From Escherichia coli (lineage in GTDB: Bacteria; Pseudomonadota; Gammaproteobacteria; Enterobacterales; Enterobacteriaceae), in the NCBI RefSeq assembly GCF_024502345.1, contig NZ_JALDNN010000001.1: a stretch of DNA of 64,000 bases. One strand, written 5' to 3'. Position 1 is the first letter of the stretch. Every line of letters starts with the position of its first letter. The notes below the pieces were generated by a model, which searched no databases, was not told where the DNA came from, and was given only the letters and a program-made list of their open reading frames with translations. Below, one piece after another: positions 17,516-53,075 of this stretch. Position numbers and translations under genes: made by a program.

Positions 17516-17614
17516 GCCTGATGCGCTACGCTTATCAGGCCTACGCAGCTCCTGCAATATATTGAATTTTCATGCTTTTGTAGGCCGGATAAGGCGTTCA
17601 CGCCGCATCCGGCA
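17516..17614. repeat. REP/BIME element (Z REP, IHF-like spacer, inverted Y REP)
   Basis: Reverse-complement copy of the element at 9104-9201. Confidence 0.85.
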
Positions 17615-19905: not shown

Positions 19906-19982
19906 GGCTACGTAGCTCAGTTGGTTAGAGCACATCACTCATAATGATGGGGTCACAGGTTCGAATCCCGTCGTAGCCACCA
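19906..19982 (+). tRNA. metT: tRNA-Met (CAU), elongator
   Basis: 77 nt; ggctacgtagctcag...CCA; anticodon loop ctCATaa. Confidence 0.95.
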
Positions 19983-19991
19983 TCTTTTTTT

Positions 19992-20076
19992 GCGGGAGTG
20001 GCGAAATTGGTAGACGCACCAGATTTAGGTTCTGGCGCCGCAAGGTGTGCGAGTTCAAGTCTCGCCTCCCGCACCA
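19992..20076 (+). tRNA. leuW: tRNA-Leu (UAG)
   Basis: 85 nt with long variable arm; anticodon loop ttTAGgt; ends CCA. Confidence 0.93.
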
Positions 20077-20099
20077 TTCACCAGAAAGCGTTGTACGGA

Positions 20100-20174
20100 T
20101 GGGGTATCGCCAAGCGGTAAGGCACCGGTTTTTGATACCGGCATTCCCTGGTTCGAATCCAGGTACCCCAGCCA
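20100..20174 (+). tRNA. glnU: tRNA-Gln (UUG)
   Basis: 75 nt; tggggtatcgccaagcggtaagg...; anticodon loop ttTTGat. Confidence 0.93.
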
Positions 20175-20208
20175 TCTTCTTCGAGTAAGCGGTTCACCGC
20201 CCGGTTAT

Positions 20209-20283
20209 TGGGGTATCGCCAAGCGGTAAGGCACCGGTTTTTGATACCGGCATTCCCTGGTTCGAATCCAGGTACCCCAGCCA
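20209..20283 (+). tRNA. glnW: tRNA-Gln (UUG)
   Basis: 75 nt; identical to the copy at 20100-20174. Confidence 0.93.
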
Positions 20284-20298
20284 TCGAAGAAACAATCT

Positions 20299-20375
20299 GG
20301 CTACGTAGCTCAGTTGGTTAGAGCACATCACTCATAATGATGGGGTCACAGGTTCGAATCCCGTCGTAGCCACCA
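20299..20375 (+). tRNA. metU: tRNA-Met (CAU), elongator
   Basis: 77 nt; identical to the copy at 19906-19982. Confidence 0.93.
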
Positions 20376-20423
20376 AATTCTGAATGTGTCGAATACGTTC
20401 GGCAAATTCAAAAACCAATTTGT

Positions 20424-20498
20424 TGGGGTATCGCCAAGCGGTAAGGCACCGGATTCTGATTCCGGCATTCCGAGGTTCGAATCCTCGTACCCCAGCCA
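20424..20498 (+). tRNA. glnV: tRNA-Gln (CUG)
   Basis: 75 nt; anticodon loop ttCTGat (wild-type, not the supE amber-suppressor allele). Confidence 0.93.
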
Positions 20499-20535
20499 AT
20501 TTATTCAAGACGCTTACATCGTAAGTGCACCCAGT

Positions 20536-20610
20536 TGGGGTATCGCCAAGCGGTAAGGCACCGGATTCTGATTCCGGCATTCCGAGGTTCGAATCCTCGT
20601 ACCCCAGCCA
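20536..20610 (+). tRNA. glnX: tRNA-Gln (CUG)
   Basis: 75 nt; identical to the copy at 20424-20498. Confidence 0.93.
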
Positions 20611-26158: not shown

Positions 26159-27697
26159 ATGGCTTTTGCCTCATTAATTGAACGCCAGCGCATTCGCCTG
26201 CTGCTGGCGTTATTATTCGGTGCCTGCGGAACGCTGGCCTTCTCTCCTTACGACGTCTGGCCTGCGGCGATTATTTCGCTGATGGGGCTTCAGGCGTTGA
26301 CCTTTAACCGTCGCCCACTCCAGTCTGCCGCTATTGGCTTTTGCTGGGGATTTGGCCTCTTTGGCAGCGGTATTAACTGGGTCTATGTCAGCATCGCGAC
26401 CTTTGGCGGGATGCCTGGCCCGGTTAACATCTTCCTGGTGGTGCTGCTGGCGGCGTATTTGTCGCTGTATACCGGACTGTTTGCTGGCGTGCTGTCGCGT
26501 CTGTGGCCGAAAACCACCTGGCTGCGCGTGGCGATTGCCGCCCCTTCTCTCTGGCAAGTGACCGAGTTTCTGCGCGGTTGGGTACTGACAGGCTTCCCGT
26601 GGTTACAGTTCGGCTATAGCCAGATTGATGGCCCGTTAAAAGGGCTGGCACCGATAATGGGCGTGGAAGCCATTAACTTCCTGCTGATGATGGTTAGTGG
26701 CCTGCTGGCACTGGCGTTGGTTAAACGCAACTGGCGTCCGCTGGTGGTGGCCGTCGTGCTGTTTGCCCTACCCTTCCCGCTGCGTTACATCCAATGGTTT
26801 ACCCCGCAACCGGAGAAAACCATTCAGGTTTCGATGGTTCAGGGCGATATTCCGCAATCACTGAAATGGGATGGAGATCAGCTTCTTAATACGCTGAAGA
26901 TTTACTACAACGCAACGGCTCCGCTGATGGGCAAATCATCGTTGATTATCTGGCCGGAGTCGGCGATAACCGATCTGGAAATTAATCAGCAACCGTTCCT
27001 CAAAGCACTGGACGGTGAGTTGCGCGATAAAGGTAGCTCGCTGGTAACCGGGATTGTCGACGCGCGTCTCAATAAGCAGAACCGCTACGATACCTACAAC
27101 ACCATCATCACACTGGGTAAAGGTGCACCGTACAGCTACGAATCAGCCGATCGCTATAACAAAAACCATCTGGTGCCGTTTGGCGAGTTTGTCCCGCTGG
27201 AGTCGATTCTGCGTCCGTTAGCACCGTTCTTTGATCTGCCGATGTCGTCGTTCAGCCGTGGGCCATATATCCAGCCGCCGCTGTCAGTAAATGGTATTGA
27301 GCTTACTGCGGCTATTTGCTACGAGATCATTCTCGGCGAGCAAGTGCGCGATAACTTCCGCCCGGATACCGACTATCTGCTGACTATCTCCAACGATGCG
27401 TGGTTTGGTAAATCTATTGGTCCATGGCAACACTTCCAGATGGCGCGAATGCGTGCGCTGGAGCTGGCGCGCCCACTGTTGCGCAGCACCAACAACGGCA
27501 TTACGGCGGTGATTGGCCCGCAGGGTGAGATTCAGGCGATGATCCCGCAGTTCACCCGCGAGGTGTTAACCACTAATGTGACACCGACCACCGGACTCAC
27601 ACCGTATGCACGTACCGGCAACTGGCCACTGTGGGTGCTGACGGCACTGTTTGGTTTTGCCGCTGTGTTGATGAGTCTGCGTCAGCGACGTAAATAA
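26159..27697 (+). CDS. lnt: Apolipoprotein N-acyltransferase
   Basis: 512 aa; N-terminal transmembrane segments followed by a CN-hydrolase domain. Confidence 0.95.
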
Positions 27698-27796
27698 TCC
27701 CTTCTTAGCGTGCCGGAATACATCCCATATTTCGGCACGCTCACCGGATGCGGCATCAGTGCGTTATCCGGATAACAATATTCTCCTATCCAACTT

Positions 27797-27812
27797 TGGC
27801 ACATCTATTGCT
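27797..27812 (+). promoter_or_regulatory. Candidate sigma-54 (-24/-12) promoter upstream of gltI
   Basis: TGGCACatctaTTGCT, with GG and GC separated by 10 nt; from memory gltIJKL is nitrogen (NtrC) regulated. Confidence 0.45.
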
Positions 27813-28093
27813 TTGTTATACAAGGCAAAGCTTGAACCAGCATCAGTACAACCCGGTTGCACCACAGCAATCCACCGGTAGCACCAAAAGAGTGCATTTT
27901 AAGAATTTTGCTTCGGAATGGTGCGGCGCACCTCCCAAATATAAACAATAAAACAGCAATATCTTTACATTTAGCCAAACTAAATGTTACCTAACAGGTA
28001 CAACACTGCACAATAAAGTTGCAGATGATAACAACACAAACACTCACAACGGGTATCCATGCGTTCTTAACGCAGAAGATAAAGGAGTTGGAT

Positions 28094-29002
28094 ATGCAAT
28101 TACGTAAACCTGCCACAGCAATCCTGGCCCTGGCGCTTTCCGCAGGACTGGCACAGGCAGATGACGCAGCCCCGGCAGCGGGCAGTACGCTGGACAAAAT
28201 CGCCAAAAACGGTGTGATTGTCGTCGGTCACCGTGAATCTTCAGTACCTTTCTCTTATTACGACAATCAGCAAAAAGTGGTGGGTTACTCGCAGGATTAC
28301 TCCAACGCCATTGTTAAAGCAGTGAAAAAGAAACTCAACAAACCGGATTTGCAGGTAAAACTGATTCCGATTACCTCACAAAACCGTATTCCGCTGCTGC
28401 AAAACGGCACTTTTGATTTTGAATGTGGTTCTACCACCAACAACGTCGAACGCCAAAAACAGGCGGCTTTCTCTGACACTATTTTCGTGGTCGGTACGCG
28501 CCTGTTGACCAAAAAGGGTGGCGATATCAAAGACTTCGCCGATCTGAAAGGCAAAGCCGTAGTCGTCACTTCCGGCACTACCTCTGAAGTTTTGCTCAAC
28601 AAACTGAATGAAGAGCAAAAAATGAATATGCGAATTATCAGCGCCAAAGATCACGGTGACTCTTTCCGTACCCTGGAAAGCGGTCGTGCCGTTGCCTTTA
28701 TGATGGATGATGCTCTGCTGGCCGGTGAACGTGCGAAAGCGAAGAAACCAGACAACTGGGATATCGTCGGCAAGCCGCAGTCTCAGGAAGCCTATGGTTG
28801 CATGTTGCGTAAAGACGATCCGCAGTTCAAAAAGCTGATGGATGACACTATCGCTCAGGTGCAGACCTCCGGTGAAGCGGAAAAATGGTTTGATAAATGG
28901 TTCAAAAATCCCATTCCGCCGAAAAACCTGAACATGAATTTCGAACTGTCAGACGAAATGAAAGCACTGTTCAAAGAACCGAATGACAAAGCACTGAACT
29001 AA
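28094..29002 (+). CDS. gltI: Glutamate/aspartate ABC transporter periplasmic binding protein
   Basis: 302 aa from internal Met with aaggag RBS; signal peptide ...AGLAQA. Confidence 0.93.
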   Translation: MQLRKPATAILALALSAGLAQADDAAPAAGSTLDKIAKNGVIVVGHRESSVPFSYYDNQQKVVGYSQDYSNAIVKAVKKKLNKPDLQVKLIPITSQNRIPLLQNGTFDFECGSTTNNVERQKQAAFSDTIFVVGTRLLTKKGGDIKDFADLKGKAVVVTSGTTSEVLLNKLNEEQKMNMRIISAKDHGDSFRTLESGRAVAFMMDDALLAGERAKAKKPDNWDIVGKPQSQEAYGCMLRKDDPQFKKLMDDTIAQVQTSGEAEKWFDKWFKNPIPPKNLNMNFELSDEMKALFKEPNDKALN

Positions 29003-29004
29003 TT

Positions 29005-29152
29005 ACAAGAACCAGGGGCGGAAATTCTAGCCCTCTCGATTGTTACGTAGCACGGACAGACTATACGCCTGATGGTCGTTCCCCATCGGGCCTGAAAACC
29101 GCAATACGCTGGGTAACAATCTTCGAGGGTAGCAGTTAACGCTGCTACCCTC
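29005..29152 (+). ncRNA. sroC: SroC sRNA (gltI-gltJ intergenic, processed from the gltIJKL transcript; GcvB sponge)
   Basis: Position matches the known sroC locus; ends in hairpin ggtagcagc-gttaacgctgctaccc plus T-run (29117-29152); boundaries approximate. Confidence 0.6.
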
Positions 29153-29171
29153 TTTTTTCTGGAGTAGATTT

Positions 29172-29912
29172 ATGTCTATAGACTGGAACTGGGGTATTTT
29201 TTTACAACAAGCCCCGTTCGGCAACACCACCTATCTTGGTTGGATCTGGAGTGGTTTTCAGGTGACGATCGCTTTGTCGATCTGCGCCTGGATTATCGCT
29301 TTCCTCGTCGGTTCATTTTTCGGCATTTTACGTACCGTTCCAAACCGTTTTCTCTCCGGTCTGGGTACGTTGTATGTCGAACTGTTCCGCAACGTGCCGT
29401 TGATTGTGCAATTCTTTACCTGGTATCTGGTGATCCCGGAGCTGTTGCCGGAGAAAATCGGCATGTGGTTTAAGGCCGAGCTGGATCCCAATATTCAGTT
29501 TTTCCTTTCATCCATGCTCTGCCTTGGGCTGTTTACCGCCGCCCGTGTTTGCGAACAGGTACGCGCCGCTATTCAGTCGCTGCCGCGTGGGCAGAAGAAT
29601 GCCGCGCTGGCGATGGGTCTGACGCTACCGCAGGCTTACCGCTACGTACTGCTGCCTAATGCTTATCGCGTTATCGTCCCGCCGATGACCTCAGAGATGA
29701 TGAACCTGGTGAAAAACTCCGCCATCGCCTCGACCATCGGTCTGGTAGATATGGCAGCGCAGGCGGGTAAATTGCTCGACTACTCGGCTCACGCCTGGGA
29801 GTCGTTTACCGCCATTACGCTGGCGTATGTATTGATTAACGCTTTTATCATGCTGGTGATGACGCTGGTTGAACGTAAAGTTCGCCTGCCCGGCAACATG
29901 GGGGGCAAATAA
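29172..29912 (+). CDS. gltJ: Glutamate/aspartate ABC transporter permease
   Basis: 246 aa; polytopic membrane protein. Confidence 0.93.
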
Positions 29913-30586
29913 TGTACGAGTTTGACTGGAGTTCCATTGTTCCTTCCCTGCCATATCTGCTCGACGGGCTGGTGATCACCCTGAAAATCACCGTCACGGC
30001 AGTCGTGATTGGTATTTTGTGGGGCACCATGCTGGCGGTGATGCGCTTGTCCAGCTTTGCGCCCGTAGCGTGGTTTGCCAAAGCCTACGTTAACGTATTC
30101 CGCTCGATTCCTTTAGTTATGGTTTTGCTGTGGTTTTACCTGATCGTGCCGGGTTTTCTGCAAAACGTGCTGGGATTATCGCCAAAAAATGATATCCGTT
30201 TAATTTCGGCGATGGTGGCGTTTTCGATGTTTGAAGCGGCCTACTATTCAGAGATTATCCGTGCCGGTATTCAAAGTATTTCTCGTGGTCAGTCGAGCGC
30301 CGCTCTGGCGTTGGGAATGACTCACTGGCAGTCGATGAAACTGATTATTCTGCCGCAGGCGTTCCGCGCGATGGTGCCGCTGCTGCTCACTCAGGGCATC
30401 GTACTGTTCCAGGATACCTCACTGGTGTATGTGTTATCTCTGGCCGATTTCTTCCGTACCGCCTCAACTATTGGTGAGCGTGATGGTACGCAGGTTGAGA
30501 TGATCCTGTTTGCCGGATTTGTTTATTTCGTTATTAGCCTTAGCGCGTCGTTGTTGGTCAGCTACTTGAAAAGAAGGACAGCATAA
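29912..30586 (+). CDS. gltK: Glutamate/aspartate ABC transporter permease
   Basis: 224 aa; start overlaps gltJ stop by 1 nt. Confidence 0.93.
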
Positions 30587-31311
30587 TGATTACCCTGAAA
30601 AATGTTTCAAAATGGTATGGTCACTTTCAGGTGCTGACCGACTGCTCAACCGAAGTGAAAAAAGGCGAAGTGGTGGTGGTTTGCGGCCCGTCTGGTTCCG
30701 GCAAATCAACGCTGATTAAAACCGTCAACGGCCTCGAACCAGTGCAGCAAGGTGAAATCACCGTCGATGGTATCGTGGTTAACGACAAGAAAACCGATCT
30801 GGCAAAGCTGCGTTCCCGCGTCGGGATGGTATTCCAGCATTTTGAGCTGTTCCCTCATCTGTCGATTATCGAAAACCTGACCCTGGCGCAGGTGAAAGTG
30901 CTTAAACGCGATAAAGCGCCGGCTCGTGAAAAAGCATTGAAATTGCTGGAGCGCGTGGGACTTTCCGCACATGCCAATAAATTTCCGGCGCAGCTTTCCG
31001 GCGGTCAGCAGCAGCGTGTGGCGATCGCTCGCGCATTGTGTATGGATCCTATTGCCATGCTGTTTGACGAACCGACATCGGCGCTGGATCCGGAGATGAT
31101 CAACGAAGTGCTGGACGTAATGGTCGAACTGGCGAACGAAGGAATGACCATGATGGTGGTGACCCACGAAATGGGCTTTGCCCGCAAAGTGGCGAATCGG
31201 GTGATCTTTATGGATGAGGGTAAAATTGTTGAAGACTCGCCGAAAGATGCGTTCTTCGATGATCCGAAATCGGACCGCGCAAAAGACTTCCTCGCGAAAA
31301 TCCTGCATTAA
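30586..31311 (+). CDS. gltL: Glutamate/aspartate ABC transporter ATP-binding protein
   Basis: 241 aa; Walker [13 protein letters not shown] signature LSGGQQQR, Walker [11 protein letters not shown]. Confidence 0.95.
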
Positions 31312-31428
31312 TCACTCTGGCGCGCATACCCAATTGCGCGCCATCTCACGCTTTATCGTTTCGCCCCTCGTATCTGTTACATCCTGGCGTTACCCTTGTC
31401 GCAAAGAAGCACACAACAAGGAGCAACA

Positions 31429-32364
31429 ATGGCACTGCCAATTCTGTTAGATTGCGACCCAGGTCATGACGACGCTATCGCAATAGTTCTCGCCCTCGCC
31501 TCACCAGAGCTTGATGTCAAAGCAATTACGTCTTCCGCCGGAAACCAGACACCAGAAAAAACCTTACGCAATGTTCTGCGTATGCTGACCTTGCTTAATC
31601 GCACCGATATTCCGGTGGCAGGCGGCGCGGTAAAACCGTTAATGCGTGAGTTAATTATCGCGGACAATGTGCACGGCGAAAGCGGTCTCGACGGCCCGGC
31701 ATTACCGGAACCGGCGTTCGCACCGCAAAACTGTACGGCGGTAGAGCTAATGGCGAAAACGCTGCGTGAAAGTGCGGAACCTGTCACGATTGTGTCTACC
31801 GGACCGCAAACTAACGTTGCCTTGCTGCTCAATAGCCATCCGGAACTGCATAGCAAAATTGCCCGTATCGTGATTATGGGTGGCGCTATGGGGCTGGGTA
31901 ACTGGACGCCTGCGGCTGAATTTAATATTTACGTTGACCCGGAAGCGGCAGAAATTGTCTTCCAGTCAGGGATCCCGGTGGTGATGGCCGGTCTGGATGT
32001 TACTCACAAAGCACAAATCCACGTTGAAGACACCGAGCGTTTCCGCGCGATTGGCAACCCTGTTTCAACCATTGTTGCCGAACTGCTGGATTTCTTCCTC
32101 GAATATCATAAAGACGAAAAATGGGGCTTTGTCGGCGCACCGCTGCATGACCCATGCACCATCGCCTGGCTGTTGAAACCGGAGTTGTTTACCACTGTTG
32201 AGCGCTGGGTTGGCGTGGAAACACAAGGGAAATATACCCAGGGTATGACGGTTGTTGATTATTATTATCTGACCGGCAATAAACCGAATGCCATTGTAAT
32301 GGTCGATGTTGATCGTCAGGGCTTTGTTGATTTACTGGCTGATCGTCTGAAATTTTACGCTTAA
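31429..32364 (+). CDS. rihA: Pyrimidine-specific ribonucleoside hydrolase RihA
   Basis: 311 aa from internal Met; DCDPGHDDA nucleoside-hydrolase motif. Confidence 0.93.
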
Positions 32365-51207: not shown

Positions 51208-51591
51208 GTGTTACAACTTCTTTTAGCAGTTTTTATTGGCGGTGGTACAGGAAGCGTGGCGAGATGGCTGTTAAGTATGCGATTTAACCCGCTGCATCAG
51301 GCGATTCCGTTGGGGACGCTGGCAGCAAACCTGATTGGGGCATTCATCATAGGAATGGGATTCGCCTGGTTCAGCAGGATGACGAACATTGATCCAGTGT
51401 GGAAAGTATTAATCACCACCGGATTTTGTGGCGGTCTAACAACCTTCTCAACATTTTCGGCAGAAGTGGTGTTTTTGTTACAAGAGGGCCGCTTTGGCTG
51501 GGCGTTACTGAACGTTTTCGTCAACCTTCTGGGGTCTTTTGCCATGACAGCACTGGCTTTCTGGCTGTTTTCGGCCTCAACCGCACACTAA
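51208..51591 (+). CDS. crcB: Fluoride export channel CrcB/Fluc
   Basis: 127 aa; four TM helices; TTG start. Confidence 0.9.
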
Positions 51592-51596
51592 AGACC

Positions 51597-51626
51597 AAAA
51601 AAAAACCCGCTGATTAAGCGGGTTTT
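51597..51626. terminator. Bidirectional intrinsic terminator between crcB and cspE
   Basis: aaaaaaaaacccgc-tgattaa-gcgggtttt. Confidence 0.8.
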
Positions 51627-51645
51627 GAATTCTTGCTGACGTATC

Positions 51646-51855
51646 TTACAGAGCGATTACGTTTGCAGCAGAAGGGCCTTTGGCACCGTTAGTGATTTCG
51701 AACTCTACGCGCTGACCTTCAGCAAGAGTTTTAAAACCATTAGTCTGGATTGCAGAGAAGTGTACGAACACGTCTTTGCTGCCGTCTTCCGGAGTAATGA
51801 AACCGAATCCTTTGGACTCATTAAACCACTTAACGTTACCTTTAATCTTAGACAT
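51646..51855 (-). CDS. cspE: Cold-shock-domain protein CspE
   Basis: 69 aa from internal Met; KGFGFI (RNP1) and VFVHF (RNP2) motifs. Confidence 0.95.
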
Positions 51856-52029
51856 CAAAATTACCTTTACATGAAAAATAGACACAAATGCTGTGTCGGT
51901 TACCAGTACACCAATTGTGGTACGCTTTGTCCAGTGCAACTTTACTAAAAAGTGATAAAAGTCGCGTTATTTTTGATGTTACTTATTTTAGCTATTGATT
52001 TTAAAGAAGTTACTAAAACTTCATTTGTC

Positions 52030-52590
52030 TCAAAACTGAAAGCGCATCCAGGCAAAGTACACATTGCCATTGTTGTAGGTACCCGGAATGTAGGTCATCT
52101 GAAAAGTCACTGGGCCATAACCCACGGAGGCCAATGGCAGTAGAACCGGGAGAGGGATGTAATTCCAGTTATCGCGTGCCGTTACGCCAGCGGTGAATCC
52201 CAGACCTAAATGAAAATTTTCATCCGCCAGCGGTCGCCAGGTACTTTCCCATCCGTATCCGGCAATCGGTTCCCATTTGTTCCACGAGTCCTTAAATGCC
52301 ATGGCATACAGGCCATGCCAGTTTCCTTTTTCATCCCAACGCGACAGGCCAAAACCGCCACCCCACGGTCGCTCGTTATAGCGATCGGTTTTTTCTTTGT
52401 CGTAAGCGAAACGTGCATGCCAGGTGATGGCAGGAATATATAAATCATAATGTTCAGGCTGTTGCCAGGTTTGTGCAATATTTTCTCTAAACGTTGTCAT
52501 CCACTCATCTGCGTTAGCAAAAACTTTACCAACGCTGATTAACTGAATAAAAACAAAGGAAAAGATAGCGACATATTTACTCACGTTCAT
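52030..52590 (-). CDS. pagP: Lipid A palmitoyltransferase PagP
   Basis: 186 aa from internal Met; signal peptide; small beta-barrel. Confidence 0.92.
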
Positions 52591-53075
52591 TTGTGACCAT
52601 AAAACATTTATCAAAAATCTACTACTAGCATAGCAAAGCTACAATTAACATAACCTTAATAGACCCAACATAAAGAATAATCTGAATAGCTGCTCTATTT
52701 ATTTCCGCTTGTTCAAGTTAAATATTTCCGCGCATCGATTAAAGATGATGCGTCGTTTTCTGCGATGGGAATAGTCAAAAAAGAAAAACCAAGTCTTTTT
52801 TGATGACAAAATGCAATCAAGGAAAAATTATTTTATTTTTTAACTAGATACAACAATCATCTTAACGAAGTATATAATATAAATCGTCAACCTATGCTCA
52901 TGTTAGATTATTTTTTGAGCGCACAGCCGCAGCTAACACCATTGCAATTAACAAATTTGCATCAATCCACCATCAATTTACACACATTATTATGTGATAA
53001 TTGCCAACCGCTAAATATGCGTTTTGTTATCTATGTATAAAAACAGCAACTTCAATGTCTTAATGGCAGTTTTTC

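Follow-up and report, generated by a model that had tools for sequence, protein, structure and literature searches.

The 169 bp spacer between gltI and gltJ in the Escherichia coli DNA analyzed here is almost certainly the sroC locus of this species, that is, the source of a processed small RNA that pairs with the small RNA GcvB and ends in a leaky terminator inside the gltIJKL operon. This DNA, a stretch of 64,000 nt, is referred to as the window below, and all positions are counted from its first nucleotide. The identity of the locus, its position, the fold, the covariation, the pairing sites, and the terminator come from the present analysis, whereas the processing, the dependence on Hfq, the decay of GcvB, and the read-through are known from the literature. 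As a discovery, the locus carries little weight: its mechanism was settled in 2015, the K-12 reference annotation includes the gene, and SroC is a known and mechanistically characterized sRNA about which nothing new emerges here. It has reportedly been known since 2003, from work by Vogel.

Identity and position of the locus

The spacer extends from position 29003 to position 29171, between the gltI stop codon, which ends at 29002, and the ATG of gltJ at 29172, exactly as had been predicted. The upstream gene, gltI (28094..29002, + strand), encodes the periplasmic glutamate/aspartate-binding protein and provides the parental mRNA of SroC. It was assigned with the NCBIfam family NF008063 (665.9 bits), and its coordinates agree with the RefSeq annotation of the gltI CDS in a genome with 100% identity over a 361 bp query across the spacer (28900-29260). 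The permease/ATPase set follows on the same strand and consists of gltJ (29172-29912), gltK (29912-30586), and gltL (30586-31311). All three are open reading frames with the corresponding RefSeq names; gltJ and gltL match ABC permease/ATPase families, and gltK matches the NCBIfam family GltK with 479.2 bits. The neighbors of gltIJKL are lnt upstream and rihA downstream.

The original prediction placed the spacer at the expected position of SroC, and this was borne out by a scan of the whole window with Rfam 15. The sroC family RF00369 was found at 28998-29160 on the + strand with 170.8 bits and E = 7e-36, at a gathering score of 45 bits, and the match covers model positions 1-163 of 163, so that it is not truncated. 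The alignment to the annotated gene, proposed at the same time as a test of similarity, led to the same site between gltI and gltJ. In the RefSeq annotation of K-12 MG1655, the ncRNA sroC (b4763) is located at 686681-686843, with its first 5 nt inside gltI and a distance of 11 nt to gltJ. In a base-by-base alignment, b4763 maps exactly to 28998-29160 of the window, with 162 of the 163 nt identical. The sole difference within SroC is T29028, which replaces a C and turns a G-C pair of stem-loop 1 into a G-U pair; a second difference between the window and K-12 is located in gltI, just upstream of SroC. The SroC small RNA (28998..29160, +, 163 nt) is slightly offset from the spacer, as it starts 5 nt inside gltI and stops 11 nt before the gltJ ATG. 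Its position relative to the two genes is identical in the window and in K-12, in both cases on the sense strand, and the gltI and gltJ flanks are likewise present in three further species that were inspected.

The 361 bp query across gltI, sroC, and gltJ was found with at least 95% identity in 5421 of 5426 complete E. coli genomes. Several genomes, including that of the O157:H7 strain PV15-279, are 100% identical over this query. Two of the 5431 matches belong to plasmids, and in a few genomes the region occurs twice. One of the genomes that match the window to 100% over the query is the O157:H7 genome NZ_AP018488.1, which was annotated with PGAP. Neither sroC nor, at the gcvB match, gcvB is annotated as a feature in this genome, in contrast to the curated K-12 record NC_000913.3, which has both. 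The missing sroC feature is a gap of the annotation pipeline and not a biological difference. This gap in sRNA annotation extends to most E. coli genomes, and the example indicates that a real regulator missed by automatic annotation can be recognized by a reader of the bare sequence.

A conserved fold supported by compensatory changes

The SroC element has a minimum free energy (MFE) of −67.2 kcal/mol, compared to a mean of −44.65 ± 4.18 kcal/mol for shuffled sequences (z = −5.39), and none of the 200 shuffles was as stable. To follow the fold across species, species-representative genomes were scanned once with AGCACGGACNNACTATA, which yielded 97 loci that were sorted by BLAST against the full SroC. 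About 40 of the 97 loci, from unrelated phyla, matched a 15-mer by chance and were dropped. Full SroC homologues, with identities of 70-99%, were present at 58 of the 97 loci, and all of them belong to Enterobacteriaceae (Escherichia, Salmonella, Citrobacter, Kluyvera, Klebsiella/Raoultella, Enterobacter, Kosakonia, Phytobacter, Siccibacter, Lelliottia, Pluralibacter, and others). The alignment used below comprises 58 sequences, namely, the window and 57 homologue loci.

When the MFE structure of the window was projected onto this alignment, 88.6% of the cells were paired, compared to 37-54% in slid controls. The covariation score was 0.202, compared to 0.05-0.07, and this value was reached by none of 500 shuffles; 16 pairs change on both sides. 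The individual elements of the fold contribute to different extents. Stem-loop 1 of the MFE fold (29015..29034, +; SroC nt 18-37) is paired in 87.7% of the cells across the 58 species, and two of its eight pairs change on both sides. It is followed by a long-range helix (29038..29121, +) with arms at 29038-29051 and 29108-29121, a 14 nt inverted repeat with 86% complementarity that encloses the pairing site BS1 as well as stem-loop 2. Pairing is kept in 82.7% of the cells of this helix, and 6 of its 13 pairs have changed in both partners. Stem-loop 2 (29067..29091, +) has a 9 bp stem and a 7 nt loop; 97.3% of its cells are paired, and compensatory double changes were found for six of its nine pairs. 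In the raw MAFFT alignment, indels put stem-loop 1 and the long-range helix out of register, so that RNAalifold detected no more than stem-loop 2, the terminator, and a short local helix; the projection of the MFE structure told more. The conserved SroC fold is supported by compensatory changes, most clearly in stem-loop 2.

Sites of pairing with GcvB

Two sites of pairing with GcvB, BS1 and BS2, have been defined in Salmonella by structure probing and compensatory mutations; they comprise 7-8 nt each and are 14 nt apart, whereas the SroC/GcvB pair of E. coli was only stated to be “equally functional” (PMC4474525). Judged from its sequence, the SroC of the window contains both published sites. 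BS1 (29054..29061, +; SroC nt 57-64, GGACAGAC) is an 8 nt perfect Watson-Crick match to nt 156-163 of K-12 GcvB, in the R3/SL4 region. BS2 (29076..29082, +; SroC nt 79-85, UCGUUCC) forms the apical loop of stem-loop 2 and is a 7 nt perfect match to nt 13-19 of K-12 GcvB, in SL1. The distance between the two sites is 14 nt, as published. For the compensatory exchanges, BS1 was mutated as C63G/G160C and BS2 as C87G/G14C (PMC4474525). The Salmonella numbering of that study corresponds to the E. coli numbering plus 3, and with this shift the probed nucleotides G61, G65, and G84 as well as the mutated nucleotides C63 and C87 fall on the expected bases.

The predicted probability of being unpaired is 0.995 for BS2 and 0.59 for BS1, part of which resides in an internal bulge. 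The BS2 loop is invariant in 56 of the 58 species, although it lies outside the search pattern; the invariance of BS1, in contrast, is uninformative because it is forced by that pattern. SroC and GcvB share four Watson-Crick runs of at least 7 nt, compared to a mean of 1.44, and about 5% of 1000 dinucleotide shuffles also reach four. The complementarity is thus statistically marginal, and the assignment of BS1 and BS2 is based on the correspondence with the experimentally mapped sites. The gcvB gene itself is located outside of the window; it is 100% identical to K-12 gcvB in NZ_AP018488.1, and an identity of at least 99% was found in 5389 of the 5426 genomes.

The leader of gltI contains a CA-rich stretch, ATAACAACACAAACACTCACAACGG (28029..28053, +), which was read from the sequence, fits the published R1 target of GcvB, and probably is a target of the R1 seed, so that it would represent the other arm of a loop that connects GcvB, gltI, and SroC. 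The 151 nt tile at 27936, which contains this stretch, gave the best duplex with GcvB R1 among 423 tiles, by a margin of only 0.7 kcal/mol. The lnt-gltI spacer, in which this leader is located, is uninterrupted in the window (27698-28093, 396 bp) and also harbors a REP-like palindrome (~27708-27770). In K-12 MG1655, an IS5 element (IS5D/insH3; L002:4852-5501) is inserted upstream of gltI.

The terminator at the 3′ end of SroC and read-through into gltJKL

The 3′ end of SroC is a Rho-independent terminator (29125..29158, +). Its hairpin, GAGGGTAGCAGT-TAAC-GCTGCTACCCTC (29125-29152), has a 12 bp stem formed by 29125-29136 and 29141-29152, with 7 of the 12 pairs being G-C, and a TAAC loop; it is followed by the U-run TTTTTT at 29153-29158. 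The predicted free energy of the hairpin is −22.7 kcal/mol, and 96.5% of its cells are paired in the 58-species alignment. In a terminator scan of the region from 27600 to 31600, this was by far the strongest terminator-like site. In SroC, the terminator would double as the module that binds Hfq. The strong hairpin with a U-run just before gltJ had been recognized correctly in the original prediction, while the left arm that was quoted, ggtagcagc, needs a correction: it reads ggtagcagt (29128-29136), and its last base forms a T-G (U-G) wobble in place of a C-G pair. Directly 3′ of the terminator, the ribosome-binding site GGAG (29161-29164) and the start codon (29172-29174) of gltJ were identified from the sequence and the RefSeq gltJ start (29161..29174, +).

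A terminator within an operon had also been taken to imply polarity between gltI and gltJKL, and the literature agrees. From a single gltI promoter, a monocistronic gltI mRNA and SroC as well as the full-length gltIJKL mRNA are generated via a “leaky Rho-independent terminator” (PMC4474525). In E. coli, northern blots revealed bands of ~1200 nt (gltI-sroC) and ~2500 nt (read-through) (PMC11347164). Because these published E. coli data include terminated as well as read-through transcripts, the terminator can be regarded as leaky. Read-through is the sole route of expression for gltJ, gltK, and gltL (29172..31311, +).

The terminator motif is conserved in 56 of the 58 species; in the two Siccibacter species of the alignment, it was not found at this position. 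Its length differs between genera, as revealed by a comparison of alignment columns 145-175, which correspond to 29125-29152 of the window. In Escherichia and Kluyvera (14 of the 58 sequences), an insertion of 7-9 nt results in a terminator stem of 11-13 bp with −16.0 to −23.9 kcal/mol, whereas most genera, including Salmonella, Citrobacter, Klebsiella/Raoultella, Enterobacter, and Kosakonia, have a 9 bp stem and a 3 nt loop with about −13.7 kcal/mol. It was in Salmonella, with its stem of 9 bp, that the leakiness of the terminator was established (PMC4474525). The longer and stronger stem in Escherichia and Kluyvera is the only small extra of this analysis, and the difference between a 12 bp and a 9 bp stem at the genus level could be used to study the ratio of SroC plus GltI to GltJKL.

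Processing of SroC and decay of GcvB

SroC is a stable fragment of ~160 nt, the 3′ end of which is formed by the conserved Rho-independent terminator in the gltI-gltJ spacer (PMC4474525). Its 5′ end is generated by a 5′-P-dependent, Hfq-guided cleavage by RNase E, which was observed in vitro as well as in vivo (PMC4474525). Among the RNase E sites mapped by TIER-seq at the 3′ end of gltI in E. coli, the most prominent one coincides exactly with the 5′ end of SroC (PMC11347164). Together, the two studies document the processing for K-12 and Salmonella. In the window, the inferred RNase E processing site, which would leave the 5′-monophosphate end of SroC, is at 28997..28998 (+), within the last codons of gltI, with the position taken from the K-12 annotation. 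On the + strand upstream of SroC, no promoter-like site was found, consistent with the view that SroC has no promoter of its own.

The pairing of SroC with GcvB triggers the decay of GcvB by RNase E (PMC4474525; Miyakoshi, Chao and Vogel 2015). When sroC was deleted or BS1 and BS2 were mutated, the half-life of GcvB, otherwise 1.7 min, exceeded 15 min, and the regulation was regained with compensatory mutations (PMC4474525). In E. coli, GcvB itself promotes the production of SroC (PMC11347164), and chimeras of GcvB and SroC are very abundant in RIL-seq, accounting for 67,138 reads in a single data set from stationary phase (PMC9299463). SroC has also been reported to sponge MgrR and to repress fliE and flhBAE.

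The following sequence of events would connect these observations. Transcripts from the gltI promoter would either stop at the leaky terminator in the spacer or read through into gltJKL. RNase E would degrade the terminated gltI mRNA from its 5′ end and, with Hfq bound, its last cut at the gltI stop codon would leave the stable, folded SroC of 163 nt with a 5′ monophosphate. Through BS1 in its internal bulge and through BS2, the loop of stem-loop 2, SroC would then pair with two distant parts of GcvB, which would be degraded by RNase E. The loss of GcvB would lift the repression of many mRNAs for amino-acid and peptide transporters, including gltI. The same terminator would determine how far the binding protein GltI outnumbers the membrane components GltJKL.

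Alternative explanations of the spacer

The element might instead be only an intercistronic terminator or a REP-like stabilizer that raises GltI relative to GltJKL, in the manner of the REPs that follow malE and hisJ, with SroC as an inert remnant of mRNA decay. This was the prevailing view before 2015; the terminator does separate the gene for the binding protein from the permease genes, and SroC is described as “containing a REP” in EcoCyc and in PMC12306157. Indeed, stem-loop 2 shares its outer stem and its length of 25 nt with the short REPs of the window at 1747, 9177, and 17516 (GCCTGATG...ATC.GGC), and the database label reflects this resemblance of the outer stem. When stem-loop 2 was considered as a member of the REP family, only the relaxed outer-stem pattern GCCKGATG...ATCNGGC was matched; it fails both classical REP half-site consensus patterns, its stem is not conserved across the genera, and the 28 nt sequence of stem-loop 2 is found at a single place in the window. 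Covariation has moved the stem away from the REP sequence in other genera, with the BS2 loop left invariant, which suggests that the loop is under selection and not the identity as a REP. As a sole explanation, the stabilizer has already been refuted by the mutational data described above, in which the loss of sroC or point mutations in BS1/BS2 stabilized GcvB and compensatory mutations restored the regulation (PMC4474525), so that we consider it very improbable. Its role in stoichiometry is real and is therefore part of the preferred explanation, a processed SroC that pairs with GcvB, and not an alternative to it. A protein-coding function has even less in its favor. The mechanical list of open reading frames contains a 67 aa frame with a GTG start on the − strand (29027-29230), which overlaps the spacer, but it is antisense to the conserved structured RNA and to the start of gltJ, it has no promoter-like site facing it, and it lacks a RefSeq annotation. 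Relatives contain indels in this region that are not multiples of 3, that is, the 7 nt terminator insertion in Escherichia versus Salmonella and gaps of 5-7 nt in Enterobacter and Kosakonia; these indels break the frame and led us to reject it, the chance that it is a real gene being negligible.

A further explanation concerns the cause of the read-through and not the identity of SroC. UCUCG (29034-29038) could pair with CGAGG (29124-29128) before the terminator is complete and thereby hold the 5′ base of the terminator stem; the competition between the two structures, possibly with the help of a trans factor, would then set the read-through and the yield of SroC. When the transcript is cut short ahead of the 3′ half of the terminator, it is in fact predicted to fold into this helix, with the E. 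coli as well as with the Salmonella sequence, the helix is contained in the consensus structure of Rfam, and its bases are nearly invariant. Moreover, a cis element or a trans factor that controls termination at this site has been raised as a possibility (PMC4474525). However, once the RNA has its full length, the fold with the complete terminator is favored over the alternative by 10.3 kcal/mol for E. coli and by 8.0 kcal/mol for Salmonella. In addition, the helix exhibits no covariation: 44 of the 58 sequences are invariant, nine break the middle pair, and in only one case is the change compensated. In E. coli, a hairpin of 8 bp with the U-run would survive the formation of the helix, and no ligand or factor is known for such a switch. 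Owing to the missing covariation and the less favorable full-length fold, we retain the anti-terminator helix only as an improbable explanation of the leakiness. It is similarly doubtful that UCUCG/CGAGG acts as a kinetic anti-terminator and that the insertion of 7-9 nt in Escherichia and Kluyvera has shifted the balance between SroC/GltI and GltJKL, as such a model would propose. If it were true, the question of regulated termination posed in PMC4474525 would become a testable hypothesis about a cis element.

Comparison with known systems and further observations

The SroC of the window shares its locus, length, ends, fold, terminator, and GcvB-pairing sites with the SroC of K-12 (b4763) and of Salmonella Typhimurium. 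Compared to the Salmonella SroC, the Escherichia terminator has an insertion of 7 nt, and the stem is extended from 9 to 12 bp, with a change from −13.7 to −22.7 kcal/mol. Like SdhX, CpxQ, NarS, MalH, and OppZ (PMC9438474), SroC is cut by RNase E from an mRNA, uses the terminator of the parental transcript, associates with Hfq, and has no promoter of its own. Unlike these sRNAs, it originates from the interior of an operon, where an internal terminator is leaky, and it acts mainly on another sRNA, GcvB, in addition to MgrR, and not on an mRNA. The REP/BIME hairpins of malE-malF and hisJ-hisQ resemble SroC in that they follow the gene for a binding protein and have the same effect on stoichiometry, and the outer stem of stem-loop 2 is similar to short REPs. 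They differ from SroC in that its 3′ end is a true terminator hairpin with a U-run, while its stem-loop 2 deviates from the REP consensus and has a conserved functional loop.

At some of the homologous loci, an insert of ~120 nt is located between the gltI stop codon, the usual 5′ end of SroC (AACTAATTA), and stem-loop 1. This was observed in Citrobacter braakii (L028:2030-2150) and at two Phytobacter loci (L090:1795-1907 and L097). The insert has long inverted arms, CCGGGCTGC...GCAGCCCG, and a core like GAATTCCCGGGCGCTTACATGAGTAAGTAACCGGG, and it appears to resemble an ERIC/IRU intergenic repeat. It would either lengthen SroC or change its 5′ processing.

Three further features of the window were noted. 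At 51598-52040 on the − strand, the Rfam family “cspA thermoregulator” was matched with 124.5 bits. This match corresponds to cspE and its leader, with the open reading frame at 51646-51939 between crcB (51208-51591, +) and pagP (52030-52614, −); as cspE is a paralogue of cspA, a function as a thermoregulator is not implied. In the nagD-asnB spacer, the Rfam family ES036 was matched at 17537-17579 on the − strand with 41.1 bits, at a cut-off of 37.6. The match lies between REPs at 17516-17540 and 17584-17613 and probably reflects this REP/BIME cluster rather than a dedicated sRNA gene. Seven tRNA genes at 19906-20607 on the + strand are consistent with the E. coli array metT-leuW-glnU-glnW-metU-glnV-glnX.
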